The position numbers were made by a program, and so were the translations under genes. A DNA stretch of 64,000 bases from an uncultured Gemmatimonadaceae bacterium (lineage in GTDB: Bacteria > Gemmatimonadota > Gemmatimonadetes > Gemmatimonadales > Gemmatimonadaceae): the NCBI GenBank assembly GCA_963817955.1, contig CAWFQK010000004.1:1312001-1376000 (forward strand), written 5' to 3'. Below, piece by piece: positions 16,774 to 63,362 of this stretch (positions are counted from its first letter, which is position 1; each line of letters begins with the position of its first letter). Under the pieces are notes generated by a model. The model ran no database searches. It saw only the letters and a program-made list of their open reading frames with translations, and was not told the DNA's origin.

Positions 16774-17342
16774 CCTGTCATCCTGAGCGACGGGCTGTCA
16801 TCCTGAGCGAAGCGAAGGATCTCGGTGAACGGCGCAACAGCATTTAACGCAGAGGTCGCAGAGAACTGCAAGAGGTCGCAGAGAACTGCAGGAGAACTGC
16901 AGAGGACCGTGAAGGATTGTCTCGCTTGGATGTCTTGGCTGATGCCGTCGTGACGCTCCGATGGTATCGCCCAGGTCGTGATCATCAACGATATAGGCGG
17001 AATGCTTGTGGACTCGGCAATCACGGTTCATTCCACCAATACGCGCTTCCCTCTTCTGTACGCTTACAGTTCTCTTTTGCAGTTCCCTTTTCCAGTTCTC
17101 TCGCCGTTCTTCTGCAGTTCTCTTCTGCAGTTCTCTTCTGCAGTTCTCTTCTGCAGTTCTCTCTGCGTCCTCCTGCAGTTCTCTGCGACCTCTGCGTTAA
17201 AAAAAACAAGCCGTCCCGCCAACGAGACGCCCGAAGTGCGGTAAGAAAGACAAGCCGTCCTGCCCTCGAGACGCCCGAAGTGCGGTAAGAAAGACAAGCC
17301 GTCCTGCCCTCGAGACGCCCGAAATCACCCACACACAGTCCC
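16774..17342. repeat. Modular palindromic repeat element, copy A
   Basis: 2x TGTCATCCTGAGCGA 20-mer module, GCAGAGAACT arm, ~155-bp core, inverted AGTTCTCTGC arm and a 44-bp tandem tail. Homologous to copies at 36098, 40738, 45048 and 62796. Confidence 0.9.
17206..17323 (+). repeat. 44-bp tandem repeat (2.7 units) in the tail of copy A
   Basis: ACAAGCCGTCCTGCCCTCGAGACGCCCGAAGTGCGGTAAGAAAG units starting at 17206, 17250 and 17294. Confidence 0.9.
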
Positions 17343-17372
17343 TCATTTGGGCCGCTGAGCTCAGCGTGGGTT

Positions 17373-19670
17373 TCATTCCCACTCATACAACACGCGATAC
17401 AACGCCGCATTCCGCTGCACGATGCGCACGTAGTCTCGCGTCTCGGCGAACGGGATACGCTCGGCGAAGAGCTCGGGATCGTCCATGCCGGGTTTGGTCG
17501 CCCAACGCGTGATGCGCGAGCCGCCCGCGTTGTACGCCGCGAGCACGCGTGGCAGCGCGCCATATTGCGCCATGTACGATGCCAGATGCGTGGTGCCAAT
17601 CTGAAGATTGGCATCAGGGTCGTACAGGAGCGCGGGTGACCAGATCGGAAAGTTCAGCGCCCGCGCGACTTCGGCGCCGACGGTCGGCATGACCTGCATG
17701 AGGCCACGCGCTCCCGCCGCTGAGGTCGCGCGTGGTGTGAAGTTCGACTCCTGCCGAATGATCGCGGCGACGAGCGCCGGGTCGAGATCGTGCGCCCTCG
17801 CGTCGCGTGTCAGCTCGTCGCGATCGAGCACGGGATAGAGCAACCGATAGGTACGTCCATCGCGATGGCCGGCGTCGGCAAATTGCTGCGCCAGTCGAAT
17901 CGCCCGCGATGGCTGACCATGCTCGAGGAGCGCATGCGCCGTGGCCAGCAAGCGATTCGGTGAGCGGTTGGCCGATTCTTCGAGCGCGTCGTATTCGAAT
18001 CGCGTCTCGACATCCATCCCGAGCTGATCGAGCAGTGCGACGCGGGCAATCGCGCTGTCGACCGCTGGAACGTGCGGGAAGGAGTCGCGGCTCGCCGGCG
18101 GGGACCACGGAGCTTCGTTCAGCCGCTTCGCGGCCAGTCCGGCGTAATACGATGTCGGCTGCTGTGACACCACGCTACGCCATCGGCTGCGAGCAGTCGT
18201 CGTATCGCCCGCAGCGGCCCAGGCGCGCCCGCTCCAGTATCGCGCCGCGGGCGCTTCCTCGGACGTTGGTGCGATCGCCACGAGAGAATCGAACTCCAGC
18301 GCCGCCGTGTTGCCATTTCCGTGAACGAACGACAGGATCGCGGCCTGAAAGCGCGCATTGTCGGCACGGGGACTCGTCGGATAGCTGTGGTACAGTTGCT
18401 GGAAGAGCGCGCGAGCCTGATCATCGTTGCCGGCATCCGTGCTGAGATCGCCCAGCAGGTACAGCGATGCGCTCGCGGCGGTCGTGTCGCTCGGAAAACG
18501 CGTGACGACGTCGCGGAGTGCGGCGCGAGTCGCATCACCGGTGCCCGATGTCAGAAGAATGCGCGCTCGTCTATAGGCTGCTTCGCCGGCAAGAGGACCG
18601 GTCACCATCGCGAGTTGCGCGAGCGCGTCGCGTGATCGGCTCACACGCGTCAGCGCCTGGGCGTACAGCAGCCGATCGTTCGGCGTCACGAGCGTCGGCT
18701 GCGACAGCGCGCGTCCGAAGCCGAGGATCGCGCGTGCCCAAGGCCCCGACACCGCACTGCTTCGTGCGATGACCAATTCCTCGGAGGGTGACAGCGTCGT
18801 GAAACCCTTGTCGAGCACCTCGGCCGCTGCTCTGGCGTCGCTCGTGCCTGCGTGCCCCCGGATGTACTGGATCAACTGCGCCCTGATCGTATCTCGACGC
18901 GCCGTGTCCGGCGCCACCGAGAGGCGAAGCCTGAGCGCGCTCACCGTGGCGCCGAGCGCCGCGTAACGCGCCGCCGCCCCGAGCGCATCGCGGAACCGCT
19001 CGCGCGCCTGCGCCTCGGTCCACGGCACGCGAGAACGTGCAACCGCGAGGGTGACACCACCGAGCGACCGGGCACGCGCCATGGAGTCGCTCTGTGTCCC
19101 GGCCGCGCGGAGCCGGAGCCAGTCGCGCACCGGACGCAATTGTTCGGCGGCGCGGGCGTACACCGCCGCCGCACTGTCGAACATGTTGTTGCGCTCGAGC
19201 GCACGCGCGAGGAGCACGAGCCGCACGGGACGAGATTCGCCACGATGGACGTCGCGCACTGCGCGCGTCGCCTGGGAGAGCGCCAGGGTGTCGTTGCCCT
19301 GCTCCAACGCGGAACGTGTCAGGAGCTCGCGTCCTTCGCCATCGTACTGCGCATCGACCCAGCCCTCGCGGAGGAGCAGCTTGTCCACCTCACTCCACCC
19401 GTCCCATCCTGCAGCGGCGCGCGCCGCCAGGACGAGCGCCGCAGGCGTGCGCTTCTCTGGGTCGCGCAGCAGTGGCGCCAGGATCTGCGTCGCGCGCCAG
19501 GGATGCCCATCGTGGATGGCCGTCTGGGCCATCGTCAGCTCATCCGATTTCTGGATGGCTTGCTCGAGATCGTGATTGGACGTCGACACGACCTCTCCGC
19601 CTGCGCTCGCTTGGTGAGACGAGCCACATGCGCCGAGGACCAGACAGCACAGAACCGACAGAAATCTCAT
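17373..19670 (-). CDS. Soluble lytic transglycosylase (Slt70-like, TPR-rich lipoprotein)
   Basis: Lipobox LVLGAC; IRQESNF, GARGLMQVMP, AAYNAG and ETRDYV SLT motifs. Confidence 0.9.
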   Translation of the reverse strand: MRFLSVLCCLVLGACGSSHQASAGGEVVSTSNHDLEQAIQKSDELTMAQTAIHDGHPWRATQILAPLLRDPEKRTPAALVLAARAAAGWDGWSEVDKLLLREGWVDAQYDGEGRELLTRSALEQGNDTLALSQATRAVRDVHRGESRPVRLVLLARALERNNMFDSAAAVYARAAEQLRPVRDWLRLRAAGTQSDSMARARSLGGVTLAVARSRVPWTEAQARERFRDALGAAARYAALGATVSALRLRLSVAPDTARRDTIRAQLIQYIRGHAGTSDARAAAEVLDKGFTTLSPSEELVIARSSAVSGPWARAILGFGRALSQPTLVTPNDRLLYAQALTRVSRSRDALAQLAMVTGPLAGEAAYRRARILLTSGTGDATRAALRDVVTRFPSDTTAASASLYLLGDLSTDAGNDDQARALFQQLYHSYPTSPRADNARFQAAILSFVHGNGNTAALEFDSLVAIAPTSEEAPAARYWSGRAWAAAGDTTTARSRWRSVVSQQPTSYYAGLAAKRLNEAPWSPPASRDSFPHVPAVDSAIARVALLDQLGMDVETRFEYDALEESANRSPNRLLATAHALLEHGQPSRAIRLAQQFADAGHRDGRTYRLLYPVLDRDELTRDARAHDLDPALVAAIIRQESNFTPRATSAAGARGLMQVMPTVGAEVARALNFPIWSPALLYDPDANLQIGTTHLASYMAQYGALPRVLAAYNAGGSRITRWATKPGMDDPELFAERIPFAETRDYVRIVQRNAALYRVLYEWE

Positions 19671-19760
19671 ATCACTGAGGCATTCAGAATCCGTACCGGC
19701 GCACAACGGCCGGGTCCTCGACGATCGAGAACCCGGCCGATGCGTGGCGGAACGGCAGGT

Positions 19761-22010
19761 CTACTTATCCGCGGCAGCCGCTGCTGGCTTCTCGTTGAGC
19801 CAGTAGCCGAACCACTGCCGCAGCCGGCTGAGGCGATCCACGAGCAGCCAGGGCTCACCCGTGCGCGACAGGTCGTGATTCGACCGCGGATAGCGCACGA
19901 ATTCGGCAGGCACGTTCTGCTTCTTGAGCGCCATGAACCAGAGCTCCGCATTGCCGATCGGCGTACGGAAGTCCTCCTCGCTCTGCACGAGCAGCGTCGG
20001 CGTCTTCACCTTGTTCACGTAACGGATCGGCGACAACGTGTCGTACATGACCTGATTCTCCCACGGCTTGCCAAAGAACTCGCCCTCGGTGAGACTCTGC
20101 GCGTCGGAGGCCCCGTACCAGAAGGTCCACTCGCTGATCATGCGATCAGTTTCAGCAGCCTTGAACCGATTGGTCTTGGTGGTCACCCATGCCGTCATGA
20201 AGCCGCCGTACGACCCGCCGGTCACGCCCATCTTCGTCGAATCGACGTCGGGGCGCTTCGCGGCGATGTCCACCGCCTTCATGAGATCGGTGTAGTCCTT
20301 TCCGCCCCAGTCGCCGCGGCTCGCGTACGTGAACTCCGTGTTCGTGCCGCTCGATCCTCGCGGATTGGTGAACAGCACCCACATGCCCGCGCCGGCAATG
20401 TTCTGGAATTCGTCGAACCACGCTTCGTTGTAGTCGGAGTGCGGCCCGCCGTGGATGTACATCACGAGCGGGAATTTCTTCGACGCATCGTATCCGTATG
20501 GCTTCATCAGCCACCCTTCTACCTCGACGCCGCCGACCGACTTGTACTTGAATTCCTCGGCGTCAGACCAGGCGACTTCGCTATTCACCTTGTCGTTGAA
20601 CGACGTCAGCTTTCGCTCACCACTGCCGTCGGCATTGGCAATGAACAGTTCCGTCGGATGGGTCACGTCGGTCGAGACATAAACGATGTGCGACTGCGGC
20701 GCGTCGTAGATCGCGCCCGTCACCACGCGCCGGCCGCCGAGGATCGTCGTGATCTTCTTCGTGGCAGGATCGATCATGAACATTCCGCTGCTGCCGCCGC
20801 TGTTCGTCATCATCACGATACTGCCGTTCTTCAGCCATTCGATCGTTCCCGGCTCGTACGTCCACGTGCCCAGGATGTCCTGCGGCTTGCCACCAGTCGC
20901 GTCCACGACAAACAGGCGCTGGTTCCGGAATCGACCGGGCTGTCCGACGAACGCGATCTGCTTGCTGTCTGGCGACCAGGCGATCTGCGTCTCGTTTCCG
21001 TTGTAATCGATGCGGTGCGGCGTGCACTCCGCGCTCTGCGCCTCGCACGCGGCGATGGGCAAGAGGTACACGTCGGTGTCATTGCGAAGCTGCTCGTCAC
21101 GCTTGCGATCGGGTGGCAGCTTGGCGATGGAGTCGCGCTCGGCGGTCACGACGGAATCCGAACGCAGCCGGACGTCGGCAAGGAACGCCACCCACTTGCC
21201 GTCTGGAGACACGACGGCGCTGCGATGCGAATACTTGGTGCTGGTGAGCGCCTTGCGTGGCGTTCCCGGACGCTCGATGTAGATCTGTGAGACCACGGGA
21301 GCTGGCGTGCGCGGCGCGGTGCGCGGACCGGGCAACAGCCCCTGCCCGTTGGCTTTATACACCATCTGCGTGATCTGACGCCCGTCGAATCGCACCGGAT
21401 TCTCCGGCTTCGTAATGGCGTCGTATGGCGGCCGCGCCATTGGTTGCATGTGGGCAAACGGATCGTTCGGATTAGTCGACGAGTCGGGCGCGGGCTGTGC
21501 GCCACGGCCGCCGCCACGCCCACCGAAACCGCCACGCCCGCCGTTGTTGTCACCGCTCGTGATGGTGAAGCTCTTGTCGGCCGGCTGCGTACCCTGGCGG
21601 ACCTGCTGCGGACCCGTGGGTTGATACGCCTCACCCGCCGGCTGGTCCATCCGCAGGGCCCAGTTCGCGCCACGTCCGCCGGGACGTTGCGAGGTGAAAT
21701 ACAGAATCTTGCCGTCTTCGGAGAAGCGCGGATTGCTGCTCTCGAAACCCGGCGACGTATAGCGCATTGGCTCGCCACCCTGCGTGGGCACCAGCCACAC
21801 CTCGGAGTGTCGACGGTTCTCCGCTTCCGGAGTTGTGGTAACTGTGAACGCCACCTTGTTGCCATCGGGGGACAAGGCGGGAGTACTCACGGTGGTCACC
21901 TTGTACCAATCAGCCGGCGTGAAAGCGTGTTTCGCCGGCGCGGGCTGCTGCGCGGCAAGACATGCGACCGGCAGCGCGAGCGCGCCCACGACAATTGAGA
22001 AAGTCCGCAT
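19761..22010 (-). CDS. S9 family (prolyl oligopeptidase/acylaminoacyl) peptidase
   Basis: IHGGPH, GGSYGG nucleophile, EDFRT and NHDL; beta-propeller repeats; signal peptide. Confidence 0.92.
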   Translation of the reverse strand: MRTFSIVVGALALPVACLAAQQPAPAKHAFTPADWYKVTTVSTPALSPDGNKVAFTVTTTPEAENRRHSEVWLVPTQGGEPMRYTSPGFESSNPRFSEDGKILYFTSQRPGGRGANWALRMDQPAGEAYQPTGPQQVRQGTQPADKSFTITSGDNNGGRGGFGGRGGGRGAQPAPDSSTNPNDPFAHMQPMARPPYDAITKPENPVRFDGRQITQMVYKANGQGLLPGPRTAPRTPAPVVSQIYIERPGTPRKALTSTKYSHRSAVVSPDGKWVAFLADVRLRSDSVVTAERDSIAKLPPDRKRDEQLRNDTDVYLLPIAACEAQSAECTPHRIDYNGNETQIAWSPDSKQIAFVGQPGRFRNQRLFVVDATGGKPQDILGTWTYEPGTIEWLKNGSIVMMTNSGGSSGMFMIDPATKKITTILGGRRVVTGAIYDAPQSHIVYVSTDVTHPTELFIANADGSGERKLTSFNDKVNSEVAWSDAEEFKYKSVGGVEVEGWLMKPYGYDASKKFPLVMYIHGGPHSDYNEAWFDEFQNIAGAGMWVLFTNPRGSSGTNTEFTYASRGDWGGKDYTDLMKAVDIAAKRPDVDSTKMGVTGGSYGGFMTAWVTTKTNRFKAAETDRMISEWTFWYGASDAQSLTEGEFFGKPWENQVMYDTLSPIRYVNKVKTPTLLVQSEEDFRTPIGNAELWFMALKKQNVPAEFVRYPRSNHDLSRTGEPWLLVDRLSRLRQWFGYWLNEKPAAAAADK

Positions 22011-22071
22011 CGATCAACTCCGGTATGGTGGGGGGTGGGATGAACGTTGGTACATCCACCCGACTACAGCA

Positions 22072-23370: not shown

Positions 23371-23560
23371 GCGACGAGGTCGCCGGGGTAGCTACAGACT
23401 AGCCCGCTTAAGTTGTGTCCCCTTTCGTCCCACGTCCAGGGTTCCACGTCACCAAAAGACAACGGCCTGAAGCCGAAGCTCCAGACCGTTGTCTTTCCGC
23501 GGAGGGAGAGGACGTGCCCACCCGCACGCCCGGGCTCACTCTCGCGCCCCAATCGTACCC

Positions 23561-24058
23561 TTATGCGCCAGGACTGCGACGGCTGCCCTTCATCTTCTGC
23601 GCGCGCTGGGCGATCCGTTGCTTGAGCCGCGCGACATTGGCGTCGAAAGTGGGCTGATGCTCCGGCGTCAACGCGGCGCGAATGTCATTCCGCTCGGCCA
23701 TGAGGAGCTGTTTCGTCTGATCGCGTTGCGCGCTTGACTGCTGCCAGAGGGCCTTCAATGCCGCCGTGTCGCCACGCTGCCGTGCCGCGCGCGCTTCCAA
23801 CAGCTTGGGCTTCAGCTCCGCCCGGAGTGCCTTGATCTGCGGAGCGTACTTGGCTCGAACGGCCTTGAGATTCGCCTTCTCAGCGTCGCTCAGCGTGATG
23901 CCCCGGAACAACTGCCCTCGAAGATTCCTGGCGAGCCGGCCGCGGGCACCGTTGGCAAGCGGACGCTGCGGCGTCGGAGTCACCTGCTGCGCGGACGAGA
24001 CAACGGCCCCACCGAACACGAGCAGAGCAGCAGCAAGCGTGGAACGAATATACGTCAT
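23561..24058 (-). CDS. Spy/CpxP-family periplasmic helical protein
   Basis: Signal peptide; LSDAEK and LTPEHQ (LTxxQ-like) motifs. Confidence 0.7.
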   Translation of the reverse strand: MTYIRSTLAAALLVFGGAVVSSAQQVTPTPQRPLANGARGRLARNLRGQLFRGITLSDAEKANLKAVRAKYAPQIKALRAELKPKLLEARAARQRGDTAALKALWQQSSAQRDQTKQLLMAERNDIRAALTPEHQPTFDANVARLKQRIAQRAQKMKGSRRSPGA

Positions 24059-24217: not shown

Positions 24218-24278
24218 GACGCTCACCGACCGGCGAGAATGGGTTTAAGGACCCAATCTCGTCGGGCCCGGCCGGGCT

Positions 24279-35935: not shown

Positions 35936-35944
35936 CGGGTCTTC

Positions 35945-36022
35945 GGGGATTTGTGTGGGTGATTTCGGGAGGCTCGAGGGGGAGGACGACTCTTTCTAAC
36001 GCAGAGTTCGCAGAGAACTGCG
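35945..36022 (-). repeat. Partial remnant of the repeat element (tail plus start of arm)
   Basis: GATTTGTGTGGGTGATTTCGGG...TAACGCAGAGTTCGCAGAGAACTGC is the reverse complement of the copy A/D right end. Confidence 0.75.
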
Positions 36023-36097
36023 CCCCCTTCTATAAGGCAGGCGGCCGGCCAGGGATCGTGATCGGCGACTCTGGTCAGGTCCGCACTATTGACCTTC

Positions 36098-36709
36098 ACA
36101 GACTGTTGAAATACGAGTGAATCGCCAGCAATCGGTTACGCGGCTGCGAAGATCGTGATCTGAGCGACGCCTGTCATCCTGAGCGACGCCTGTCATCCTG
36201 AGCGACGGCCTGTCATCCTGAGCGACGGCCTGTCATCCTGAGCGACGGCCTGTCATCCTGAGCGACGGGCTGTCATCCTGAGCGAAAGCGAAGGATCTCT
36301 GTGACCGATAGACCAGCTTTTGAACGCAGAGGACGCAGAGAACTGCAGGAGGTCGCAGAGAACTGCAAGAGAACTGCAGAGAACCGTGAAGGATTGTCTC
36401 GCCTGGGCGTCTTGGCTGATGCCGTCGTGAGGCTCCGATGGTATCGCCCAGATCGGGATCATCAACGATATGGGCGGAATGATTGTGGACTCGGCAATCA
36501 GGTTCATTCCACCAATACGCCCTTCCCCCTTCCGCACGCTTCCAGTTCTCTTTTGCAGTTCTCTGTTGCAGTTCTCTGTTGCAGTTCTCTGCAGTTCTCT
36601 TGCAGTTCTCTGCGTCCTCTGCGTTCAAAAGCTGTTGCGCCGTTTGCGTTAAAAGACCGTCCGGCCCTCGAAGTGATCTGACTCCTGTTCAGCTATTTCA
36701 ACAGTCTGT
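36098..36709. mobile_element. MITE-like modular element, copy B (complete, 612 bp)
   Basis: Perfect 16-bp TIRs ACAGACTGTTGAAATA/TATTTCAACAGTCTGT, 6x 20-mer module, perfect 34-bp internal inverted repeat (36314-36347 vs 36601-36634) and the shared core. Confidence 0.85.
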
Positions 36710-36824
36710 TAACGCTCGGAGTCCAATCCACGCTGTACCGACCAGCGATCGTGGCTTGCGAGCCAGGGCCACCCGCGCGACTACCCTGCACGATTGATGA
36801 GATTTACTCCGCGTTCCTCCACCG

Positions 36825-39754: not shown

Positions 39755-40738
39755 ATGCCACGCGTCGAAGTCGATCCGCTCACTCCTGATCCGCAGGTCA
39801 TCGCCGAAGCAGCCCGCCTATTGCGCGCGGGCGGACTCGTGGCGTTTCCCACTGAAACGGTGTACGGCCTCGGTGCGAACGCGCTCGACGCCGCCGCTGT
39901 GGCGCGGATCTACGCCGCCAAGGGCCGCCCAGCGTACAACCCACTGATCGTCCACGTGGCGCAGGCTGAACAGGCGCTGGACGTGGTGCGAGAATGGCCG
40001 GATCGCGCGGCACGGCTCGCCCACCGGTTCTGGCCCGGTCCGCTGACGATGGTACTGCCAAAGCGTCCGTCCGTTCCGGATTCAGTGACCGCCGGACTGG
40101 ATTCAGTGGCGGTGCGCGTGCCGATGCACCGAGTGGCCCATGCGCTGCTCCTGGCGGCGAACATTCCGGTCGCCGCCCCGAGCGCAAACATTTCGATGAG
40201 TCTGTCGCCCACCACCGGCCGCCACGTCGCCAAGTCCCTGGGCGACAAGGTGGACATGATCCTCGACGCCGGTCCCACCCCGGTGGGCATCGAGTCGACC
40301 GTGGTCGATCTGACGACGCCCGTAGCGACCCTGCTGCGCCCCGGCACGATCGCGTTGCCGGAGCTCGAGGCGGTGCTTGGTCCCATGGCAGTGGGCGGTA
40401 CGTCGGACGACACCGGCGCGCGGCGTTCGCCGGGCATGCTCGATCGACACTACGCGCCGAGGGCACGGCTCATTCTGTCATCAGCCGGCGATCTCGAATC
40501 CGCGATCACCCGCGAGCGCATGGCCGGCCGAACTGTTGGCGCATTGGTCATGACCACCGCACTGCCAACCAGCGACACGGTGCAGTTGCCACATGAGCCG
40601 CACGAGTACGCGGCGCAGCTCTACGCAGCGCTCCACGCGCTCGATGACCGAGGATACGACGTCATTGTCGTTGAACGCGTGCCCAGCGGCCCCGAGTGGC
40701 TCGGCGTGCGCGACCGGCTGGAGCGCGCGGCGCAATGA
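39755..40738 (+). CDS. sua5: L-threonylcarbamoyladenylate synthase (Sua5-type TsaC)
   Basis: AFPTETVYGLGA, KGRP, NPLIVH, APSAN and SPGML..HYAP motifs; SUA5 C-terminal domain. Confidence 0.93.
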   Translation: MPRVEVDPLTPDPQVIAEAARLLRAGGLVAFPTETVYGLGANALDAAAVARIYAAKGRPAYNPLIVHVAQAEQALDVVREWPDRAARLAHRFWPGPLTMVLPKRPSVPDSVTAGLDSVAVRVPMHRVAHALLLAANIPVAAPSANISMSLSPTTGRHVAKSLGDKVDMILDAGPTPVGIESTVVDLTTPVATLLRPGTIALPELEAVLGPMAVGGTSDDTGARRSPGMLDRHYAPRARLILSSAGDLESAITRERMAGRTVGALVMTTALPTSDTVQLPHEPHEYAAQLYAALHALDDRGYDVIVVERVPSGPEWLGVRDRLERAAQ

Positions 40739-41291
40739 CAGACTGTTGAACTACGAGTGAATCGCCAGCAATCGGTTACGCGGCTGCGAAGATCGTGATC
40801 TGAGCGACGCCTGTCATCCTGAGCGACGGCCTGTCATCCTGAGCGACGGCCTGTCATCCTGAGCGAAAGCGAAGGATCTCTGTGACCGATAGACCAGCTT
40901 TTTAACGCAGAGGACGCAGAGAACTGCAGGAGGACGCAGAGAACTGCAGGAGGTCGCAGAGAACTGCAAGAGAACTGCAGAGAACTGCAAAAAGAGAACT
41001 GTAAGCGTACGGAAGAGGGAAGCGCGTATAGGTGGAATGAACCGTGATTGCCGAGTCCACAATCATTCCGCCTATGTCGTTAATGATCACGACCTGGGCG
41101 ATACCATCGGAGCATCACGACGGCATCATCCAAGATATCGGGATAAGATCTACTCGGTGTTCCTCTGCGGTTCTCTGCGTTCTCTTCAGTTCTCTGCGTC
41201 CTCTGCGTTGAAAAAAAGCCCTCCAACCCTCGAATTGATGCGCACGCCCTCGAGCTTCTGACTCGTGTCCAGCACTATTTCAAAAGTCTGT
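40738..41291. mobile_element. MITE-like modular element, copy C (core inverted)
   Basis: TIRs ACAGACTGTTGAACTA/TATTTCAAAAGTCTGT and 3x 20-mer; the core is reverse-complemented relative to copies B and E. Confidence 0.85.
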
Positions 41292-45047: not shown

Positions 45048-45388
45048 TGCAACAGCTTTTGAACGCAGAGGACGCAGAGAACTACAAGAGGTCGCAGAGA
45101 ACTGCAAGAGAACTGCAAGAGAACTGCAGAGGAACACCGCGTAGTCGCATCCGGATGTCTTGGATGATGCCGTCGTGACGCTCGGAGTCGCGAAACTGGG
45201 GGATGGGATTATCCGAATGGTGAATCGCCTCCAGTGTTCCCCCCTTCAGTTCTCTTTGCAGTTCTCTGCAGTTCTCTTGCAGTTCTCTGCGACCTCTGCG
45301 TTAAAAAAACAAGCCGTCCCGCCCCCGACCCCCTGCAATGCGGTAAACAAACAAGCCGAGACGCCCGAGATCACCCACACCGACCCCC
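45048..45388. repeat. Modular palindromic element, copy D (no TIR or 20-mer; alternative core)
   Basis: Same inverted GCAGAGAACT arms and same tail as copy A. The core shares GATGCCGTCGTGACGCTC and then diverges. Confidence 0.85.
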
Positions 45389-46394: not shown

Positions 46395-46461
46395 TATCGC
46401 CGATCTCAGGCACAGCGTCGTGCGGCCGCACTCAGGCGCACGGGCAATTAGATTCTCTCTG

Positions 46462-46545
46462 CGACCGGGGTGCCTGCCCACTGAGGGTGCAGGCTGAGAG
46501 AGACCCGTAGAACCTGATCCGGTTCATACCGGCGTAGGGAGTCGG
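46462..46545 (+). ncRNA. TPP riboswitch (THI element)
   Basis: GGGGTGCC...GGCTGAGA..ACCCGTAGAACCTGATCCGGTTCATACCGGCGTAGGGA matches the TPP consensus. Confidence 0.93.
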
Positions 46546-46549
46546 AAAA

Positions 46550-48643
46550 ATGCTTTGTTCAGTCTCGCCGGCGGTGCGTCGCCGCGCCCGGAGCGTCGCG
46601 CTCGCGACGTCCGCACTCGTCATCCTCACATCCGTCACACAGGCCCAGGTCGCGTCAAAGGACAGCGCGCGAGCTGATTCCAGTCGCGCCCAGCGATTGG
46701 AGCGCGTGATGATCTCCGCGGTCCGCGGATCCGGTACCGCGCCAATTTCGCAGAAGACGATCACGGCGGCAGATATCAAGCCGCGGTATTTCGGACAGGA
46801 CGTTCCGCTCCTGCTGCAGGGCGCGGCCCCATCGCTCACGTCATACGCCGAAACAGGCAATTATTGGGGTTATAGCTACATCCGTCTGCGTGGCATCGAC
46901 CAATCGCGCATCAACCTCACGCTGGATGGGATTCCGCTGAACGACCCGGAAGACCAGGTCCTCTACTTCGCGGACTTTCCCGACCTCGCCAACAGCCTTG
47001 GGTCGGTGCAGATCCAGCGCGGCGTGGGAACGACGAGCAACGGTACCGCGTCATACGCCGGCTCGATCAACATGGAGACGATCCCGCTGGCGGCAACGGC
47101 ACGCGGCGGTGAGGCGCAATTCGAAAGCGGTTCGTTCGGCTCCAGGCGGGTGAGCGCCGAATACACGACGGGACTCCTCCCGAGCCGGTTCGCCGCGTAC
47201 GCACGCCTCTCGGCGCTGCACACCGACGGCTATCGCTATCACTCCGGCGTGGAGGGACGCTCGGCGTTCCTCAGCGCCGGGTATTTCGGTGACCGCGACA
47301 TCGTGAAGTTCACGACGACGACTGGCACCATGCAGGACACGATGGCGTACCTCGCGGTGGCGGCGTCGGACCTCGCGACGGATCGGCGCATCAACCCCCT
47401 CACGCCACGGGAGCGTGACGGGTTCACCGAGCGGCTGGCCGCGCTGTCGTACGTCCGGTTACTCTCGCCGTCGTCATCCTGGTCCACGACGGCGTATCGC
47501 ATCTCGTCGAGCGGCGACTATGACGTGCTCGTCGACTCGCTCGACAACTTCAATCTGAAGTTCGTCTGGTACGGCATCACGAGCGACTGGAACTACCGTC
47601 ACGACGGTGTTCAACTCGACGTGGGCGTGAACGCAAACACCTACGCGCGCGATCATGCAGCGTACCAGCAGCCCGACATCACGGATCCCCTGTACGTCAA
47701 CACGGGCCACAAGCAGGACGCCAGCCAGTTCGCCAAGCTGGCGTATACCGCCGGCGCCGCCACGCTGTTCGGCGACGTACAGACGCGCCAAGCCGAGTTC
47801 CGCTACACGCCCGATGCCCACGCGGGAATCCCCGAGCGATCCATCACGTGGACGTTTCTCAATCCGAAGGCCGGCATCACGTACGTACTCAGTGCCCCGC
47901 TGTCGCTCTATGCGTCCTACGGCAAGAACACGCGCGAGCCGGCGCGTAGCGACATGTTCGCCGGCTTTGATAATCTCGATACGTCGAATGTGGCGTTCGT
48001 CGGGGATCTCAGCCGCGTGAAGCCGGAGACAGTGCACGATCTGGAGACCGGCCTCACCTACCGCGGCACGGCGTTCGACGCGCAAGCGAACGTGTACTCG
48101 ATGGACTTCCGTAACGAGATCGCTCCGGTCGGAGCACTCAGTTACATCGGCACGCCCCTGCGAAAGAATGTTGCATCGAGCTATCGCCGCGGTGTCGAGG
48201 TGGACATCACCTATCGCGGCATTCCCCGTCTTCTCCTGTCGGGGAACGCTACGGGGAGCACGAATCGCATCCGGCAGTACACCGACTCGAGCGGGGACAC
48301 CGTCGCCACATACCACAATGCGCAGCCACTGCTCACGCCCCGTTTTCAGACATTCGCCCGCGGGGCTTTCACTGCCACGCGCGCACTGACGCTGGCGCTC
48401 GAATCTCGCTATCAGAGCCGCTCCTTTCTCCAGAACACGAGCGACCCGCAGTACGTGCTGCCGGCCGCGTTCAATCTCGACGGCAGCGTGTCGTGGCGCG
48501 TGGACCGTTACGAGTTGCTCGTCCGCGGAAACAATCTCACGAACAGCAAACGGTACGGCAGCGGCTACGGTTACGGCGGAATCTCGTACTATTATGTCGT
48601 GCCGCCGCGGAATGTATTTGTCACGGCGAAGGTGGACTGGTAG
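46550..48643 (+). CDS. TonB-dependent receptor, likely for thiamine or its precursors
   Basis: TonB-box-like LERVMISA, plug motif IRLRGIDQSRINLTLDGIPLND and C-terminal W; directly under a TPP riboswitch. Confidence 0.9.
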   Translation: MLCSVSPAVRRRARSVALATSALVILTSVTQAQVASKDSARADSSRAQRLERVMISAVRGSGTAPISQKTITAADIKPRYFGQDVPLLLQGAAPSLTSYAETGNYWGYSYIRLRGIDQSRINLTLDGIPLNDPEDQVLYFADFPDLANSLGSVQIQRGVGTTSNGTASYAGSINMETIPLAATARGGEAQFESGSFGSRRVSAEYTTGLLPSRFAAYARLSALHTDGYRYHSGVEGRSAFLSAGYFGDRDIVKFTTTTGTMQDTMAYLAVAASDLATDRRINPLTPRERDGFTERLAALSYVRLLSPSSSWSTTAYRISSSGDYDVLVDSLDNFNLKFVWYGITSDWNYRHDGVQLDVGVNANTYARDHAAYQQPDITDPLYVNTGHKQDASQFAKLAYTAGAATLFGDVQTRQAEFRYTPDAHAGIPERSITWTFLNPKAGITYVLSAPLSLYASYGKNTREPARSDMFAGFDNLDTSNVAFVGDLSRVKPETVHDLETGLTYRGTAFDAQANVYSMDFRNEIAPVGALSYIGTPLRKNVASSYRRGVEVDITYRGIPRLLLSGNATGSTNRIRQYTDSSGDTVATYHNAQPLLTPRFQTFARGAFTATRALTLALESRYQSRSFLQNTSDPQYVLPAAFNLDGSVSWRVDRYELLVRGNNLTNSKRYGSGYGYGGISYYYVVPPRNVFVTAKVDW

Positions 48644-54181: not shown

Positions 54182-54558
54182 GAAAGGTTATTAGTAAAGA
54201 TATGGTAGCGAACGGTCGCTCGCATTTTCCGAGCGACGTGTGCTGATGAGAGTTCGATCCCGTGGAAAGCACTTGTCATGCGAGGCGCTGACTGCTTGCA
54301 ACACAGGAGTCAAAGCCCGGCTGAGCAACGGGTTAGAGCAGCCGGGTGCAGGACAACTGGGAATGCAGTGCGGCGGGTGTGCCACGATGGGTGCGGCACG
54401 ATGGGCACAGTAAGCACTTGATTCCCACAGCTCCGAGGGGGCCTTCGAGGGCCGGACGGCCTTCTTTAATCCTGCTTTGTCAGTGATACCTGCGGACGAC
54501 TGCCGCGCAGTCGGCGGATGATCGAGCGGGGGCTGGCGGGGGCTGGCGCAAGCGATCG

Positions 54559-54780
54559 GGACGACGGGTGACTGTGATCAGTCATCAGTGCGTGGGTCGT
54601 CAGTCCTCAGTGACTGAGGACCCCGACAGCCCTCGATCGGGCGAAGAGATCCGCGACCATCCACCACCAAAAAAGAACGCGCGGCCACGGAGGCTGGCCC
54701 GAGCGAGAACCCGTCGCGTAGCCGCGCGACTGATGACTGAGCACCGCTGACTGATGACTGATCACAGTCACCCGCCGTCC
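54559..54780. repeat. Heptamer-rich inverted-repeat element
   Basis: Perfect 25-bp IR CGGGTGACTGTGATCAGTCATCAGT (54565-54589 vs 54750-54774), extendable to about 31 bp; built from the ACTGATG-type heptamer. Confidence 0.85.
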
Positions 54781-54873
54781 AGATCGCTTGACCTCGCGTG
54801 GCGCCGCCGGACCCAGCCGAAGAGGTTCGCGTCGTTACCGCCGGGATCTTCCTGGGCGTGATGACGGGGCGCT

Positions 54874-56323: not shown

Positions 56324-56324
56324 G

Positions 56325-59300: not shown

Positions 59301-59591
59301 GCCGTTCGTCGACTTCCAGACGCCGCCATTCACCGAGCCGAAGTAGAAGACGCTCGGCTTGGTGGGATCGCCGGTCACGGCGACCGCGCGTCCGCCACGG
59401 AACGGCCCCACCAGCCGCCAGCGCATTCCGCGCAGCTCGCGCGGCGCGCTCGCGTACCGCGTCGAATCGAACGCGGCGGCCGGCGTCGGCGCCGGCGCCG
59501 GCGTGCGTTGCTGCGCGAGGCCAAGCGTTGGGGCGAGCAGGAAAGACACCAGCGCGAGCGGGCGGAGCATATGAATGCGGGTGAGGGTCAT
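56325..59591 (-). CDS. VPS10/BNR-repeat (sortilin-like) secreted glycosyl hydrolase-like protein
   Basis: Many S/TxDGGxTW Asp-box repeats, WRLVGPFRGGR and ATHGR; signal peptide from ATG 59591. Confidence 0.88.
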   Translation of the reverse strand: MTLTRIHMLRPLALVSFLLAPTLGLAQQRTPAPAPTPAAAFDSTRYASAPRELRGMRWRLVGPFRGGRAVAVTGDPTKPSVFYFGSVNGGVWKSTNGGTSWRNITDGTSNISSVGAIAVAPSDPNVIYAGGGEADLREDWTYGDGMYRSTDAGRTWTHLGLDDARHIARIVIDPRDPDRVLVAAMGHASGRNGMRGVYRSKDGGRTWERMLFVDDSTGAIDLAMDPSNPRIVYAAMWHMQRTPWGFTAGHGSVWKTTDGGDTWRDLTANPGIPKNPLGRIGVSVSPANPERIYATIECPPEDSTGGIFRSDDGGASWHRTSGDQKWMVRPWYYSVVTADPSDTNTVFVMNLSTWKSTDGGHTFSRIRLPHGDTHALWIDPHDSRRMISGNDGGATVSLDGGANWSSIMNQPTAQFYHVTTDDQWPYRIFGAQQDNTTLSMASRSDDGTITAMDWYAVGGGEAGYIAPKPGNPNIVIAGTYTGTMTRYDVRTKQAKDISVWLNNYDGWAARDVPNRFQWTYPILYSTHDPRALYTTANRVFRSMNDGDSWEAISPDLTLHDPKTLGPAGGPITYDMTGTEWYASIFAFAESPLTADVLWAGSDDGLIHLSRDRSKTWINVTPPNFGTYTRVSIIEPSHYDAGTAYVAANRFQQDDFAPYLYKTTDYGHTWTKITTGIPNGAYTRTIREDPARRGLLFAGTETGIYYSTDDGAHWTSLQLNLPRAAVRDLHIHGSDLIAATHGRAMWLLDDITPLRQLTDGVRGESVHLFTPDTVVRFAGGHARTETAGENPPDGVIVDYWLKRALAPHDSARIEYIDAAGKVLRSFSSAPAPDSITSAAAEKSRGMRSVEDDTLAFAPSDSTVTVRAGLNRFVWDLHYPDTREVKDVVNDEGSTRGPVIAPGAYTVRLTAGGKTYTQPFIVRGDPRLNTTQAEYDAQLALALEVQAKTNELSDAVERIVTIENALGERTGAAKGQSYAKRLSDAAKPMRDKLVAIRDSLVESHSHADQITLHYPVRYYNMLLSLAGMVQSADAAPTAQEGAIYRDIAPKVDQQIARLHAFESRDLAAFNALMRELNVPGVTMPAPAIVP

Positions 59592-59626
59592 GAGCACCGT
59601 CGTAAACGGCGTCGTCGTAGACGGCG

Positions 59627-61186
59627 TCAAGGTGCAATCAGCGCGGGTTGACTCGCAACGCCAGTGGCGCTGATCGCCGTGACGGCCACTTCGCTCGGGC
59701 CGGATGTGCCGATTGCCCCAGCGAGCAGATGCCCTTCGCCAGTCGGCGTCAACGAGGTGTTCCAGCGACCGTCGCGCCCCAGAGTTTGGACAAGCCACCA
59801 GCGAACGGGAACGGAATCTCCTGGGGTGATGCTCAGGGAGATTGGTTTGTCGCCGCTGACGACGGTCAGGAACGGCGGGGCGGGCACGGTGGCACCGAGC
59901 CACGGAAAGGACGGGACCATCGCGCGCTGCTGGTACATGGCCGACGCGAGACCCGCGCCAAGGCGATCGTTGTCGGCCAGCAGCGCGCTGAGGCGAAAGT
60001 GCACATGCCCTGGCGCGTCCGTGGTGCCGATACGCGAATCGCGAATCGATTCGATCTGCGTACGGATTGCGTCCGCGGGCCACGCATCGCGGCCGCCGTA
60101 GACGTGCGCCGTGTACAGGCCCGGCCACACATAGCGTCCAAGCGGATTCTCCGAGCGCCACCAGGCGTCGAGCACGCGGAATCGGTCCTCCACGCCGCCT
60201 ACCTCCCAGTAGAGCTGCGGCGTGATGTAATCGAGCCAGCCCTGCTCGAGCCAGCGCCGGGAGTCGGCGTAGATCTCGCTGAATGCGTCGAGCCCGGTGA
60301 TGCCGCGCGGCGTGCCGGAACGCCAGATGCCGAAGGGCGAGATGCCGACGAGCATCGCCGGCTTCTCGGCTTTCACACTTTTATAAAGTGATTGAATGAA
60401 CTGGTCGATGTTATCGCGCCGCCAGGCGTCGCGATTCGTAAAGCCCTCGGCCTTGCCGTACTTCTTCCAGGTCTTGTCGTCGGGGAATGGAATATCCTCG
60501 TGGACGCGCACACGCTTCCGGTGTACGCGCCGCGTGACCGTCCGCGACTCGCGATACGGATAGAAGTAGTCGTCGAGGTGGACGCCATCGATGTCATAGC
60601 GTTTCACGACATCGAGAATAGATGCAAGGACAAACTGGCGGGCCGCGGGGTCGCCTGGATCAATCCAGGTCTCCGACCCGTACTTGCGGATCCACTCCGG
60701 ATGACGCTTGGTGACGTGCGACGCCGCGGCCTTGCCGGCAAACACCGGCAGCATGGCGCGGAATGGATTGAACCAGGCGTGCAGTTGGAGCCCGCGCGCG
60801 TGCGCTTCGGTGACTGCGAACTCGAGCGGATCGTACGCCGGCGACGGTGCCACGCCAGACTTTCCGGAGAGATACACCGACCAGGGCGCGTACGTCGTCG
60901 GATACATTGCATCGCCGGCGAGGCGAACGTGCAGGATGATGGTGTTCAATCCAATCGCCGTCGCCTGATCGAAGAGCACGCGCAACTCGGCGCGTTGCGA
61001 GTCGGGCGACAACCCCGGGGCCGATGGCCAGTCCTTGAAGCCGCGGTCCCAGATGGGCGTGACCCACGCGGCGCGAAATTCACGGGGCACCGGTGGCGGC
61101 GGCAACAGAGGCACCCGCGCCGGCGGCTTTGGTGTGCCGTTGGTGCCGAAGGCGATGGCGAGAGCAAAGAGGGGCAAGAAACGCAT
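59627..61186 (-). CDS. GHL10/DUF187 glycoside hydrolase (YddW/DigH-like)
   Basis: REFRAAWV, YDPL...HAWFNPFR, DGVHLDDYFYPY, GISPFGIW and DYITPQLYW motifs. Confidence 0.9.
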   Translation of the reverse strand: MRFLPLFALAIAFGTNGTPKPPARVPLLPPPPVPREFRAAWVTPIWDRGFKDWPSAPGLSPDSQRAELRVLFDQATAIGLNTIILHVRLAGDAMYPTTYAPWSVYLSGKSGVAPSPAYDPLEFAVTEAHARGLQLHAWFNPFRAMLPVFAGKAAASHVTKRHPEWIRKYGSETWIDPGDPAARQFVLASILDVVKRYDIDGVHLDDYFYPYRESRTVTRRVHRKRVRVHEDIPFPDDKTWKKYGKAEGFTNRDAWRRDNIDQFIQSLYKSVKAEKPAMLVGISPFGIWRSGTPRGITGLDAFSEIYADSRRWLEQGWLDYITPQLYWEVGGVEDRFRVLDAWWRSENPLGRYVWPGLYTAHVYGGRDAWPADAIRTQIESIRDSRIGTTDAPGHVHFRLSALLADNDRLGAGLASAMYQQRAMVPSFPWLGATVPAPPFLTVVSGDKPISLSITPGDSVPVRWWLVQTLGRDGRWNTSLTPTGEGHLLAGAIGTSGPSEVAVTAISATGVASQPALIAP

Positions 61187-61551
61187 GCGATGATCGATGA
61201 GGCGATGGGCGACGGCTGCGGCGCGCGCGTCTGTATCGAATATACGCCCGCGTAACGGTCGGTGATCCACGTCACGTCGCCCGCCTGCCCGTCACCTCAT
61301 GGCACGAAGACTGCTTTACGAATGGCCGGCGACACCGCGAAAGGGAGAGCCGCGCAAGCGGTTGAAGGTGGGGCGCGGGTCGCCAGGTGGGGGGAGAGGA
61401 TGAGCTACGGGCAGCGGCGTGAGCCGCTGCCCGTAGTTTCATGGCAGCCGGCCTCGGCAAGGCAGCCACAGCCGTGGGCCCACGAGTTTCGGTGGTGGCG
61501 TTGGCGGTCGAACGGTCCCAGCGGCCAGACTCTATCGCGGATATTCCCGAC

Positions 61552-62565
61552 ATGTCCCAGCCGCCACTCATTCCGCTTGCGCATCTCACGGCCCTCCCCG
61601 ATCCGGAGCGCCGGTTCCGGTTGATGGAAATCGTGCGGCGGCGGTTGCGCGAACGTCGATACAGTCGCCGGACTGAGGAAGCCTACGTCCATTGGATCCG
61701 TCGATACATCATCTATAACGAGAGGCGCCATCCGCGGGATCTCGGGGAAACGGAGGTTCGACGCTTTCTCTCTTCTCTCGCGACCGAGGAGCGTGTCGCG
61801 GCATCCACGCAGAACCAGGCTCTTTCGGCCGTGACGTTTCTGTACGACCGCGTGCTCGAGCGACCGCTGACGCGCATCGAGGGCATTCAGCCGGCGCGGC
61901 GATCCCGGCATGTGCCCGTCGTGATGAGCGTGGCCGAGGTCCGCGCGATCCTGACGAAGCTCGAGACTCCGGTGCGACTCTGCGCCGCTATCATGTATGG
62001 AAGCGGCCTCCGGCTCATGGAGTGCATGACGCTGCGGGTCAAGGATGTGGACCTCGATCGTCGAGAGATCGTCGTGCGGGATGGGAAAGGTGGCAAGGAT
62101 CGCCGCACGCCGCTGGCGGAACGCTGCGTGGCACCGCTCATCCGGCTATTGGCCGCGGAGCAGGATTGCTTTCGACGCGACACCCGCGCTGGGGTGCGCA
62201 CCACCGACCTGCCGGCTGCGGTCTCGAGAAAGTATCCGAACGCCGAGGCGGAGTATCGGTGGCGGTATCTCTTTGCCGCTTCCCGTACCTTCACCGACGC
62301 CAACGGCGTCCGCCGGCGTCATCACCTGCACGAAAGCGCCGTGCAGCGTGCGTTCAAGAACGCAGTGACTGCGGCGGGGATCACCAAGCGCGCGACCTGT
62401 CATTCGCTTCGTCATTCCTTCGCCACCCACCTGCTCGAATCCGGCGCTGACATCCGGACAGTGCAGGAGTTGCTTGGCCACAGCGATCTGCGCACGACGA
62501 TGATCTACACGCCTGTCCTCAATCGCGGCGGCTTGGGCGTACGCAGTCCGGCGGATGCGCTGTAG
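61552..62565 (+). CDS. intI: Integron integrase (tyrosine recombinase)
   Basis: [32 protein letters not shown], the integron-specific RKYPNA..WRYLF..RRHHL insertion, and [21 protein letters not shown]. Confidence 0.95.
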
Positions 62566-62746
62566 GGGACTGTGCCCATCCTGAGCCTGCTCATGAGTTT
62601 TCTGTCCGTTTCTGCGTGTTACGCCGCGACCGCACGCAGCATAGCGACGGAGGTGCCGTTGGCTATCGAGGGGCAAGCGGTTGGGGCTGCGCAACATCCA
62701 ATGTGCAACCTCATATGTCGCCGTTGCTACGCCGCAAGCGTCGCGG

Positions 62747-62775
62747 TTGTCTTGTGCGCTTCTGCAGCGTATAGT
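62747..62775 (+). promoter_or_regulatory. Putative cassette promoter Pc
   Basis: TTGTCT-N17-TATAGT pointing into the cassette array. Confidence 0.55.
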
Positions 62776-62797
62776 GACCACCTACTTGGTGTTGGGC
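62776..62797 (+). other. Putative attI site (core GTTGGGC at 62791-62797)
   Basis: A GTTRRRY core after the putative Pc and immediately before the array. Confidence 0.55.
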
Positions 62798-63362
62798 CGA
62801 CTGTTGGAATACGAGTGAATCGCCAGCAATCGGTTACGCGGCTGCGACGATCGTGATCTGAGCGACGCCTGTCATCCTGAGCGACGGCCTGTCATCCTGA
62901 GCGAAAGCGAAGGATCTCTGTGACCGATAGACCAGCTTTTTAACGCAGCGGACGCAGAGAACTGCAGGAGGTCGCAGAGAACTGCAAGAGAACTGCAGAG
63001 AACCGTGAAGGATTGTCTCGCCTGGAAGGCTTGGATGATGCCGTCGTGAGGCTCCGATGGTATCGCTCAGGTCGGGATCATCAACGATATGGGCGGAATG
63101 ATTGTGGACTCGGCAAGCACGGTTCATTCCACCGATACGCGCTTCCCTCTTCCGTACGCTTCCAGTTCTCTCTTACAGTTCTCTGCAGCATTCTTTTGCA
63201 GTTCTCTTTTGCAGTTTTCTGTTGCAGTTCTCTGCAGTTCTCTGCAGTTCTCTTGCAGTTCTCTGCGTCCTCTGCGTTCAAAAGCTGTTGCGCCGTTTGC
63301 GTTTAAAGGCCGTCCGGCCCTCGAAGTGATCGGACTCCTGTTCAGCTATTTCAACAGTCTGT
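62796..63362. mobile_element. MITE-like modular element, copy E, at the attI/cassette-1 junction
   Basis: Near-identical to copy B with 2x 20-mer. Left TIR GCCGACTGTTGGAATA; right TIR TATTTCAACAGTCTGT overlaps GTTAGGC. Confidence 0.85.

Follow-up and report, generated by a model that had tools for sequence, protein, structure and literature searches.

The window examined here, a 64,000-nucleotide stretch from the genome of an uncultured Gemmatimonadaceae bacterium (assembly GCA_963817955.1, contig CAWFQK010000004.1; G000:C4:1312001-1376000 in our numbering), contains five modular palindromic repeats, designated copies A to E. These repeats are deleted and multiplied copies of a palindromic cassette element whose intact form carries a GxxExxY nuclease gene. 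Two intact GxxExxY cassettes, labelled FL1 and FL2, occur in the same genome (nine contigs, 94% complete), both of them on contig C2 and outside the window. All five copies lie where an initial annotation of the window had placed them, as confirmed by reading the sequence, and they comprise the following features, in which single capital letters other than the copy names denote outer modules and the N and C types retain opposite ends of the gene.

16774..17342, plus strand: copy A, an N-type deletion derivative, whose left side carries H/K modules and whose right side carries Y/R/X modules
16843..16905, plus strand: left arm of copy A, TTTAACGCAGAGG followed by GCAGAGAACT-type units; 42 nt, 95% complementary to 17160-17201
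16906..16977, plus strand: leader of copy A, homologous to the 5' leader of the intact genes (BLASTN: C4:1328892-1329034 = FL1 165-307)
16978..17034, plus strand: remnant in copy A of GxxExxY codons 1-19 (VIINDIGGMLVDSAITVHS), with the deletion junction after 17034
17035..17067, plus strand: trailer of copy A, the post-stop sequence of the ancestral cassette, common to the N and C types
17068..17201, plus strand: right arm of copy A, inverted TGCAGTTCTC-type units ending in CCTCTGCGTTAAA
35945..36030, plus strand: truncated solo arm and outer X/Y-like module, upstream of copy B
36098..36709, plus strand: copy B, an N-type core inside an O-S-H(x6)-K-Q-T ... T-P-R-O composite
36367..36510, plus strand: core of copy B, with the last arm unit, the leader and an N-terminal remnant carrying a 1-nt deletion (BLASTN, alignment)
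40738..41291, plus strand: copy C, in which flipped arms and core sit in the outer composite seen in B and E; the TGA stop codon of the upstream gene is where the element starts
41034..41176, minus strand: core of copy C, leader and N-terminal remnant (BLASTN: C4:1353176-1353034 = FL1 164-307)
45048..45388, plus strand: copy D, a C-type deletion derivative (BLASTN, C-type alignment)
45117..45186, plus strand: leader and last arm unit of copy D (BLASTN, FL1 163-234)
45187..45231, plus strand: remnant in copy D of the last ~15 GxxExxY codons (VAKLGDGIIRMVNRL; alignment against FL1 ~579-625)
54437..54470, no strand assigned: solo outer module R, not a cassette core
62796..63362, plus strand: copy E, whose N-type core is set in an O-S-H-K-Q ... 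T-P-R-O composite; on the right, copy E directly adjoins the stop codon of a minus-strand gene (TTA on the plus strand)
62986..63130, plus strand: core of copy E, leader and N-terminal remnant (BLASTN)

The arms of these elements are arrays of units of about 10 nt (GCAGAGAACT, GCAAGAGAACT and others) with an outer start of TTT(T/A)AACGCAGAGG, and they enclose a unique core of about 160 nt. Inverted arms of this type around a core, as originally described, are present in all five copies, in pairs of 31-42 nt with 91-100% complementarity (42 nt and 95% in copy A, 38 nt and 97% in B, 31 nt and 94% in C, 31 nt and 100% in D, 38 nt and 92% in E). The perfect 34-bp inverted repeat reported for copy B pairs 36314-36347 with 36601-36634 without a mismatch, and the core peptide frames read as had been stated, with a 1-nt deletion in the remnant of copy B (alignment row C4_1348367). 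Two additional remnants had been proposed: the one at 35945-36030 is indeed a truncated arm with an outer module, whereas the one near 54445 is a solo outer module R that lacks a core. Folded as single-stranded DNA, copy D reaches -76.3 kcal/mol versus -37.2 kcal/mol for shuffled sequences (z -10.8), and none of 200 shuffles was as good. The arm 13-mer GCAGAGAACTGCA occurs 78 times in forward and 77 times in reverse orientation in the genome, and its reversed control is absent.

The intact form of the element was recovered by a TIGR04256 search of the whole genome, which returned two intact genes:

L001:1486-1860, minus strand: GxxExxY gene of FL1
L002:1486-1860, minus strand: GxxExxY gene of FL2

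Both genes are preceded by the leader of the window copies (~70-90 nt) and are enclosed by the arm, T/P and H/K modules of those copies in inverted orientation. From the outside inwards, the intact unit consists of GTCATCCTGAGCG / AAGCGAAGGATCTC (H/K modules), GAACGGCGCAACAGC-TTTTGAACGCAGAGG (P and T modules), GCAGAGAACT-type units, the leader, a GTG start, an open reading frame (ORF) of 125 codons and a short trailer, after which the modules follow inverted. Between its outer arm ends the complete unit measures ~520-580 bp, and its outermost terminal motif is ..AGCTTTTGAACGCAGAGG. The inverted repeat flanking both genes spans 90 nt at 95.6% (147 bits), compared with 24.3 bits for the best of 200 random windows of the same genome. 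As RNA, the FL1 unit folds so that ~130 bp of stem enclose the ORF, its minimum free energy being -393 kcal/mol, as against -267 kcal/mol in shuffles (z -16).

The sole ORF of the intact unit encodes a PD-(D/E)xK protein, so that the parent element carries no recognised transposase. The two proteins score 136.8 bits (4e-40) and 134.1 bits (2.7e-39) with TIGR04256 (cut-off 35), and 132.3 bits (1.4e-38) and 129.7 bits with PF13366 (PDDEXK_3; cut-off 22). Both keep the G-x-x-E-x-x-Y motif (G24/E27/Y30) and the PD-(D/E)xK triad (D67/E77/K79), and the residues invariant in 43 aligned sequences are H18, G24, E27, Y30, E37, D67, E77, K79, H88 and Q91. FL1 and FL2 are separated by 17 synonymous and 5 non-synonymous differences (dN/dS 0.088). 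Taken together, the family scores, the invariant residues and the low ratio indicate that both intact genes are functional and under purifying selection. The AlphaFold (AF2) model of the protein (pLDDT 89.4) has an alpha-alpha-beta-beta-beta-alpha-beta fold; its best Foldseek match is Cas4 SSO0001 (E 1e-3, TMq 0.54-0.58), VIA gave Z scores of up to 7.8 to restriction-endonuclease-like proteins, Cas4, Hjc and others, and all of the top structural matches are PD-(D/E)xK nucleases. As modelled, the GxxExxY protein has a minimal PD-(D/E)xK nuclease fold, for which the structure matches give no specific subfamily. A sequence search of the Protein Data Bank yielded nothing significant (best E 0.66), and a scan of the FL1 cassette restricted to the sigma-70 consensus detected no promoter-like site.

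The relationship between the intact and the deleted forms was traced by BLASTN of the full-length FL1 core against the genome. In total, 54 core-bearing loci were found, distributed over all nine contigs, and two of them are full length. Forty-two others are N loci, which keep FL1 ~163-307, i.e., the leader and the first ~19 codons (39 complete, and 3 whose leader is partial); in the window, this segment is matched by copies A, B, C and E at 80-86% identity. The remaining 10 rows comprise only the leader, only the last ~37 nt of the gene, or the two together. By alignment, these fall into nine C-type copies (four rows classed as C, three as C with no leader hit and two as leader only) and a single row, C8:4668. 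The latter represents the left half of an N copy into which an insertion sequence has integrated, with the other half at C8:6187. The leader of copy D aligns to FL1 163-234 by BLASTN, and its last ~15 codons are in register with FL1 ~579-625 in the alignment of the C-type copies; BLAST aligns FL1 595-631 in seven of the nine C copies, copy D not among them.

Each of the two types has one junction throughout. The sequence ..GTTCATTCC|ACC(G/A)ATACGCGCTTCCCTCTTCCGTACGCTT.. (also written ..GTTCATTCC|ACC.ATACGCGCTTCCC..) is common to all 42 N copies, and ..GACGCTCGGA|GTCGCGCAGCTGA.. to all nine C copies. The trailer that follows the stop codon in the C copies (..GCGTTCCACC.CTACGCGCTTCCCTC..) is the sequence found after the N junction. 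The N and C trailers are thus homologous, and the N deletion, located at a TTCC microhomology, removed the stretch between codon 19/20 and a point shortly after the stop codon. The alignments show two independent internal deletions, one giving the N form (leader, codons 1-19 and trailer) and the other the C form (leader, last ~15 codons and trailer). Six of the nine C copies have an internal duplication of ~26 nt in common, and the C copies occur with two leader variants, which suggests sub-lineages and exchange between copies.

On the strength of a resemblance of the remnant peptides to GxxExxY termini, the initial annotation had surmised that opposite ends of one gene survive in different copies. 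The resemblance is upheld by the DNA-level homology of copies A, B, C, E and D to FL1, and the surmise by the shared N and C junctions and the alignments to FL1. It would have been given up for want of a full-length gene inside the arms and of any similarity to the termini; both the gene and the similarity are present. The 20-residue peptides themselves (16978-17037 and 45172-45231) matched no family in hidden Markov model scans, as expected for such short queries, and it is the DNA-level homology that decides.

In the split N element (L141, G000:C8:4300-6700), an IS3-family insertion sequence of 1.44 kb (~C8:4743-6187) separates the two halves near FL1 position 250; it encodes OrfA of 128 aa and OrfB of 318 aa, the latter with an rve-like DDE core as judged by eye from the translation. 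In the N copies at G000:C2:1120551 and G000:C8:4668, an identical left truncation junction (..CACTCGGCGCAGCGGAAGAACTA..) replaces the left arm, and this pair represents a further sub-lineage that was copied after a rearrangement.

The N cores show a median pairwise identity of 90%, are 94.4% identical to their consensus and 83.8% to FL1, and the closest pair reaches 99.4%. Their tree, which was built on 181 columns and has little resolving power, is a star in which 27 of 37 inner branches are unresolved. The N core was found in none of 30 congeneric genomes (in the own genome, the same search scored the best 27 of 84 candidates), and the N-junction 25-mer had no exact match in genome_contigs or in metagenome_contigs. 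Likewise, the arm 13-mer occurs 155 times here versus 0-6 times in each of the 30 congeners. GxxExxY genes are present in all 24 congeners of the first draw (2-9 in each), and the arm dialects at ten congener loci, one in each of ten genomes, differ from the one found here, including GCAGAGAC, CACAGAGG and GCAAAGG. The star tree, the absence from congeners and the empty orthologous sites described below indicate that the deleted forms multiplied in this lineage; the spread of each form to numerous sites (42 and 9 loci) is confined to it.

The gene remnants are neutrally decaying, non-coding DNA. In the N remnants, substitutions per site at the three codon positions amount to 0.076, 0.060 and 0.071, without codon-position bias; the N consensus lacks the GTG start, and 31 of 39 frames are open and 8 broken. 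A functional micro-peptide encoded by the N-terminal remnant was considered and rejected on these grounds.

Congeners, at 70-77% nucleotide identity, have the same gene order around copies B, C and D, and the orthologous spacers were measured by projecting the flanking genes onto the congener loci. At site C the spacers are 9-19 bp long in all four congeners, versus 582 bp here; at site D they range from -5 to 191 bp in all 11 congeners, versus 452 bp; and at site B, 7 of 12 congeners have no more than 47 bp, versus 889 bp. The other five congeners at site B have spacers of 146-668 bp; three of these contain different unit-arm palindromes, and the other two an extra ORF-like segment. At the loci orthologous to ~35936-36824, a convergent site (L020, L021 and L024), the arms of the palindromes are arrays of GGAACGG or GAGGGT units, and the cores between them, 100-400 bp long, show no obvious gene. 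The converse case is also found: three congeners (L003, L007 and L012) carry a full cassette at one locus that is missing here, the counterpart being a ~110-bp spacer with a terminator hairpin only. Empty sites in both directions indicate that the elements come and go at intergenic sites. Together with the shared junctions at 42 and 9 unlinked loci, the empty sites agree with the earlier proposal of a cassette that spreads as a unit and leaves deletion derivatives resembling miniature inverted-repeat transposable elements (MITEs).

All 54 loci lie between protein-coding ORFs as delimited by a crude caller, mostly at gene 3' ends: 25 between convergent, 27 between tandem and 2 between divergent genes, with at least one gene 3' end facing the element at 52 of the 54. 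Copies C and E directly abut a stop codon. In four public DNA runs (one study, shares 0.06-0.10), the pieces recovered are mostly 32-184 nt long and fall mainly over the repeat modules. An Rfam search of the window gave no match to the elements, its sole match being a thiamine pyrophosphate (TPP) riboswitch (RF00059, 76.6 bits) at 46456-46557 on the plus strand, upstream of a 697-aa ORF (46550-48643).

Beyond the arms, the elements are mosaics of outer modules. Read in the orientation of the core, they are typically arranged as [O][S][H]n[K][Q or P][T]-arm-core-arm-[T][P or Q][K][H]n or [R][O]. Matches to the H motif number 241 in the genome, as against 3 for its reversed control, and a core lies within 500 bp at only 46 of 205 H/K loci; H is an independent family of the repetitive extragenic palindrome (REP) type, most loci of which are without a GxxExxY core. 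Tandem 18-20-nt repeats of CCTGTCATCCTGAGCGACGG (2-11 copies) followed by AAGCGAAGGATCTC are present in the window at 36170-36285, 40808-40866, 62877-62905 and 16776-16812, as well as genome-wide, and the H motif also appears in small stand-alone hairpins (C9:35496-35574, and congener locus L038). The O ends, ACAGACTGTTGAA(A/C)TA, form the terminal inverted repeats of the B, C and E composites (36098-36113, 36694-36709, 40738-40753, 41276-41291 and 63347-63362). Genome-wide there are 27 O ends, 17 of them preceded by TA, often from the TAA stop codon of a gene, and this TA may itself belong to the end.

The composites are polar. The S module is located upstream in 10 cases and downstream in one, copy C, while H/K modules are upstream only in 31 and downstream only in 6. 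Since the core of copy C is on the minus strand, it is inverted relative to the outer modules that this copy has in common with B and E; in copy C, either the core has, as a rare event, turned round between its own arms, or insertion took place the other way round. A joint between opposite strands at 40982/41135, seen in one contig from the public DNA runs, probably derives from another copy with the usual core orientation and is no sign of inversion at copy C.

The two N cores that are 99.4% identical match from the K module through the core to ..AAAAGCTG and are set in different outer scaffolds, which indicates that copies also exchange by recombination in shared modules. The possibility that the O-S-R composites form a clade in the core tree was rejected: the type of outer O-S-R scaffold requires 13 changes on that poorly resolved tree, versus 13.2 in shuffles. 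Among 42 T+..T- arm pairs, 37 are derivatives of 208-361 bp, the full-length units measure 522 and 581 bp, and three at 760-1042 bp look like chance pairings of unrelated motifs. Empty, core-less arm pairs that might serve as homing targets were sought throughout the genome, in which no T+..T- pair is shorter than 208 bp.

The association between arms and gene extends well beyond this genome. In a cross-phylum sample of 80 GxxExxY loci, 78 of which could be scored, a flanking inverted repeat of at least 30 bits was present at 37 of the 78, versus 1 of 133 control windows shifted by 1.5 kb; within the genus, 7 of 11 loci exceeded 30 bits. Across phyla, the arms are arrays of the related units ACGCAGAGG, ACCACAGAGG, CGCAAAGG and CGCAAGG, and are RCRCAGAGG-like. 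On the coding strand, the upstream arm is purine-rich at 32, pyrimidine-rich at 3 and intermediate at 9 of the 44 loci with at least 26 bits. The arm-gene-arm layout and its fixed polarity are, on these comparisons, a family-wide property and not peculiar to this genome. Congener cassettes at orthologous loci (L010/L011; L003/L007/L012) have diverged in their arm units (CACAGGGGA versus CACGGAGAT units, for example), and both arms have changed together, which suggests either concerted evolution or selection for arm complementarity.

A second type of cassette was observed in the same genome, which contains five genes of the four-helix-bundle family TIGR02436 ('23S rRNA IVS protein', after the intervening sequences, IVS, of 23S rRNA; L014-L018). 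Four of these genes lie between inverted repeats of 48-122 nt, and the arms differ from those of the GxxExxY cassettes. The arm type of L014 (G000:C4:1054678-1054998) recurs at 16 loci, and 10 of these are gene-less and have a common 97-nt core; one lies in the window at ~54530-54790.

With respect to the mechanism, we lean slightly towards a palindromic cassette family that spreads by a nuclease-driven process acting in trans; within the frame of a mobile cassette, the chances that the GxxExxY nuclease itself drives the spread are about even. In such a process, the arms would be the cis-acting sites, and copying would be started by the intact nuclease, supplied in trans, through cleavage at the arm DNA or inside it, the substrate perhaps being a hairpin or cruciform. 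The break would then be repaired from another copy, or else the unit would be excised and inserted elsewhere. The gene-less copies would be MITE-like or REPIN-like passengers, and recombination between copies in shared modules, together with occasional flipping of the core (copy C), would also shape the family. The old and polar association between gene and arms, the coincidence in one genome of intact genes of this arm dialect with the burst of copies, and the absence of RAYT and IS630-type genes all argue for a role of the nuclease. A search for RAYT (Y1, PF01797) had no match in the own genome, the control search being positive in 6 of 14 genomes, and the IS630-type domain DDE_3 (PF13358), which was sought as an explanation of the TA-flanked O ends, likewise had no match there.

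Several points weigh against this reading. That the protein cuts the arms or moves DNA is something we infer from sequence; of the nuclease-associated mobile or REP-like system envisaged initially, the mobile and REP-like parts stand, in view of the empty sites, the lineage-specific amplification and the intergenic location, while the nuclease as the mover is conjectural. Neither a target-site duplication nor exact ends could be defined at sites B, C and D by comparison with the empty sites of congeners, which at 23-30% divergence cannot be aligned base for base, so that ends and duplications are unreadable. Over the part that they have in common, identity between the intact genes and the N cores is just 79-88%, and the intact genes are not the direct parents. 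Many copies are located inside larger, often TA-flanked composites that are bounded by ACAGACTGTTGAA and have a fixed internal order, which means that for some copies the unit that moves may be another layer. The 99.4% pair, in which identity ends inside shared modules, fits gene conversion as well as it fits transposition. The gene-less four-helix-bundle copies indicate that this architecture can multiply without encoding a nuclease. Finally, the gene calls behind the context counts come from a crude ORF heuristic based on third-position GC content (GC3).

A broader proposal is put forward tentatively, as a possibility that we would not expect to hold in its entirety. GxxExxY proteins would be the mobilising enzymes of an unrecognised prokaryotic element that spans phyla, with the unit-array arms, as hairpin or cruciform, serving as their recognition substrate; copying would be triggered by the nuclease and would leave MITE-like derivatives, and the four-helix-bundle cassettes would be a sister design on the same pathway.

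The strongest competing explanation, though we consider it unlikely, invokes another mobiliser, which could be a transposase that has escaped recognition or a function of host recombination or replication that acts on long palindromes, with the GxxExxY gene as cargo or as a selfish passenger that has some other role (defence, toxin or RNA processing). Such a mobiliser would accommodate the four-helix-bundle cassettes, which have the same layout and their own gene-less copies without any nuclease, as well as the gene-less-looking unit-arm palindromes of congeners at site B; the O-ended composites, with their flanking TA and fixed order, would also suggest a separate MITE-like vehicle. In contrast, the genome, at 94% completeness, gave no match to PF01797 or PF13358, abundance of the arm dialect is confined to the genome in which intact genes of that dialect are present, and the conservation across phyla of arm-gene association and polarity is hard to explain for incidental cargo.

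Spread without any transposition is improbable. Here the core would pass by homologous recombination or gene conversion among pre-existing REP-like scaffolds (H/K, P/Q and T), and the shared junctions would be conversion tracts. Such scaffolds are plentiful, given the abundance of the H motif on its own and the ~160 of 205 H/K loci with no core nearby; the breakpoints of the nearly identical pair lie inside shared modules, and the core tree is independent of scaffold type, although a tree of 181 columns can resolve little. The 0-40-bp congener spacers at sites C and D are nevertheless without any scaffold, which implies that whole composites arrived there, and the genome offers no core-less arm pairs as recipients. 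Least probable by far are host-beneficial structural elements (bidirectional terminators, or mRNA-stabilising or RNase III-processed hairpins) selected at gene 3' ends with incidental gene fragments, for despite the very stable hairpins, the near-universal proximity to a 3' end and the 25 convergent sites, the elements are missing from orthologous sites in all sampled congeners with both flanking genes anchored, the core decays neutrally, copy number and occupied sites are lineage-specific, and purifying selection against insertion into promoters would produce the same 3'-end bias.

The descent of these repeats from GxxExxY cassettes links a widespread gene of no assigned function to a family of mobile repeats. 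The GxxExxY/PF13366 family is very large, with at least 7,973 relatives; Gemmatimonadaceae labels on close homologues and on related loci are no more than a pointer to taxonomy. The relevant part of a census of PD-(D/E)xK proteins grades PF13366/PDDEXK_3 as 'Unknown' (PMC3424549), and GxxExxY is mentioned in PMC8934634, in a passage that does not concern its function. In the full-text literature, the coverage of which excludes subscription journals, no published biology of GxxExxY, PF13366, PDDEXK_3, TIGR04256 or TIGR02436 and no description of the element were found. The genealogy is unusually clean, with intact genes, two deletion lineages, 51 dispersed descendants, one arm dialect and empty sites in relatives. 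Small nuclease genes between GCAGAG-type repeats thereby turn from a recurrent annotation oddity into a testable model of a selfish element, with a candidate DNA substrate for the enzyme. On the practical side, short-read assemblies probably break at the repeats (many of the listed homologues are on ~1-kb contigs), and the repeats also give rise to spurious ORFs.

Four known systems provide the closest analogies, and none of them fits as a family: REPIN-RAYT, MITEs, 23S rRNA IVS and homing endonuclease genes. REP/REPIN sequences and their RAYTs ('REPtrons') are treated by Bertels and Rainey in 2011 (PMC3116915, PMC3337134). As in that system, tens of dispersed extragenic palindromes match the inverted repeats that flank one or a few enzyme genes, the gene-less copies are presumed to be mobilised in trans, and the repeat dialect is mostly lineage-specific. 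Unlike there, the enzyme is a 125-aa PD-(D/E)xK nuclease and not an HUH/Y1 transposase (with no PF01797 match in the genome, there is no RAYT gene between the repeats), the arms are arrays of ~10-nt tandem units and not a single REP hairpin, and the gene-less copies are internal-deletion derivatives that keep the gene-flanking regions and the gene termini.

MITEs (Correia, RUP and the like) are derived from autonomous transposons with terminal inverted repeats. The present elements are like them in having a gene-bearing parent with which both ends are held in common and which has been internally deleted, a single deletion junction dispersed over many unlinked loci (42 of 42 N and 9 of 9 C copies), inverted termini, intergenic locations and a burst-like star phylogeny. 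In contrast to MITEs, their parent lacks a DDE or other known transposase, no target-site duplication can be resolved, and the inverted 'termini' are unit arrays of 60-130 nt, the whole element being a hairpin.

ORF-bearing 23S rRNA IVS, as represented by that of Coxiella burnetii with its S23p protein (PMC4990558), are likewise selfish, of ~0.4-0.5 kb, and have complementary ends forming a long stem around a small ORF, as in the fold of FL1; moreover, the S23p/four-helix-bundle family is found in equivalent cassettes of the present genome. The elements described here differ from these IVS in lying between protein genes instead of in rRNA, and in that their ORF encodes a nuclease.

Free-standing homing endonuclease genes are small selfish nuclease genes whose ORF degenerates and is lost after spread. 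Copying by repair from a filled template, as in homing, would explain the conversion-like patchwork seen among the present copies. Unlike homing endonuclease genes, the cassettes have many dispersed targets rather than one allele, they involve neither an intron nor an intein nor a known cleavage site, and their deleted forms outnumber the intact genes by 51 to 2.

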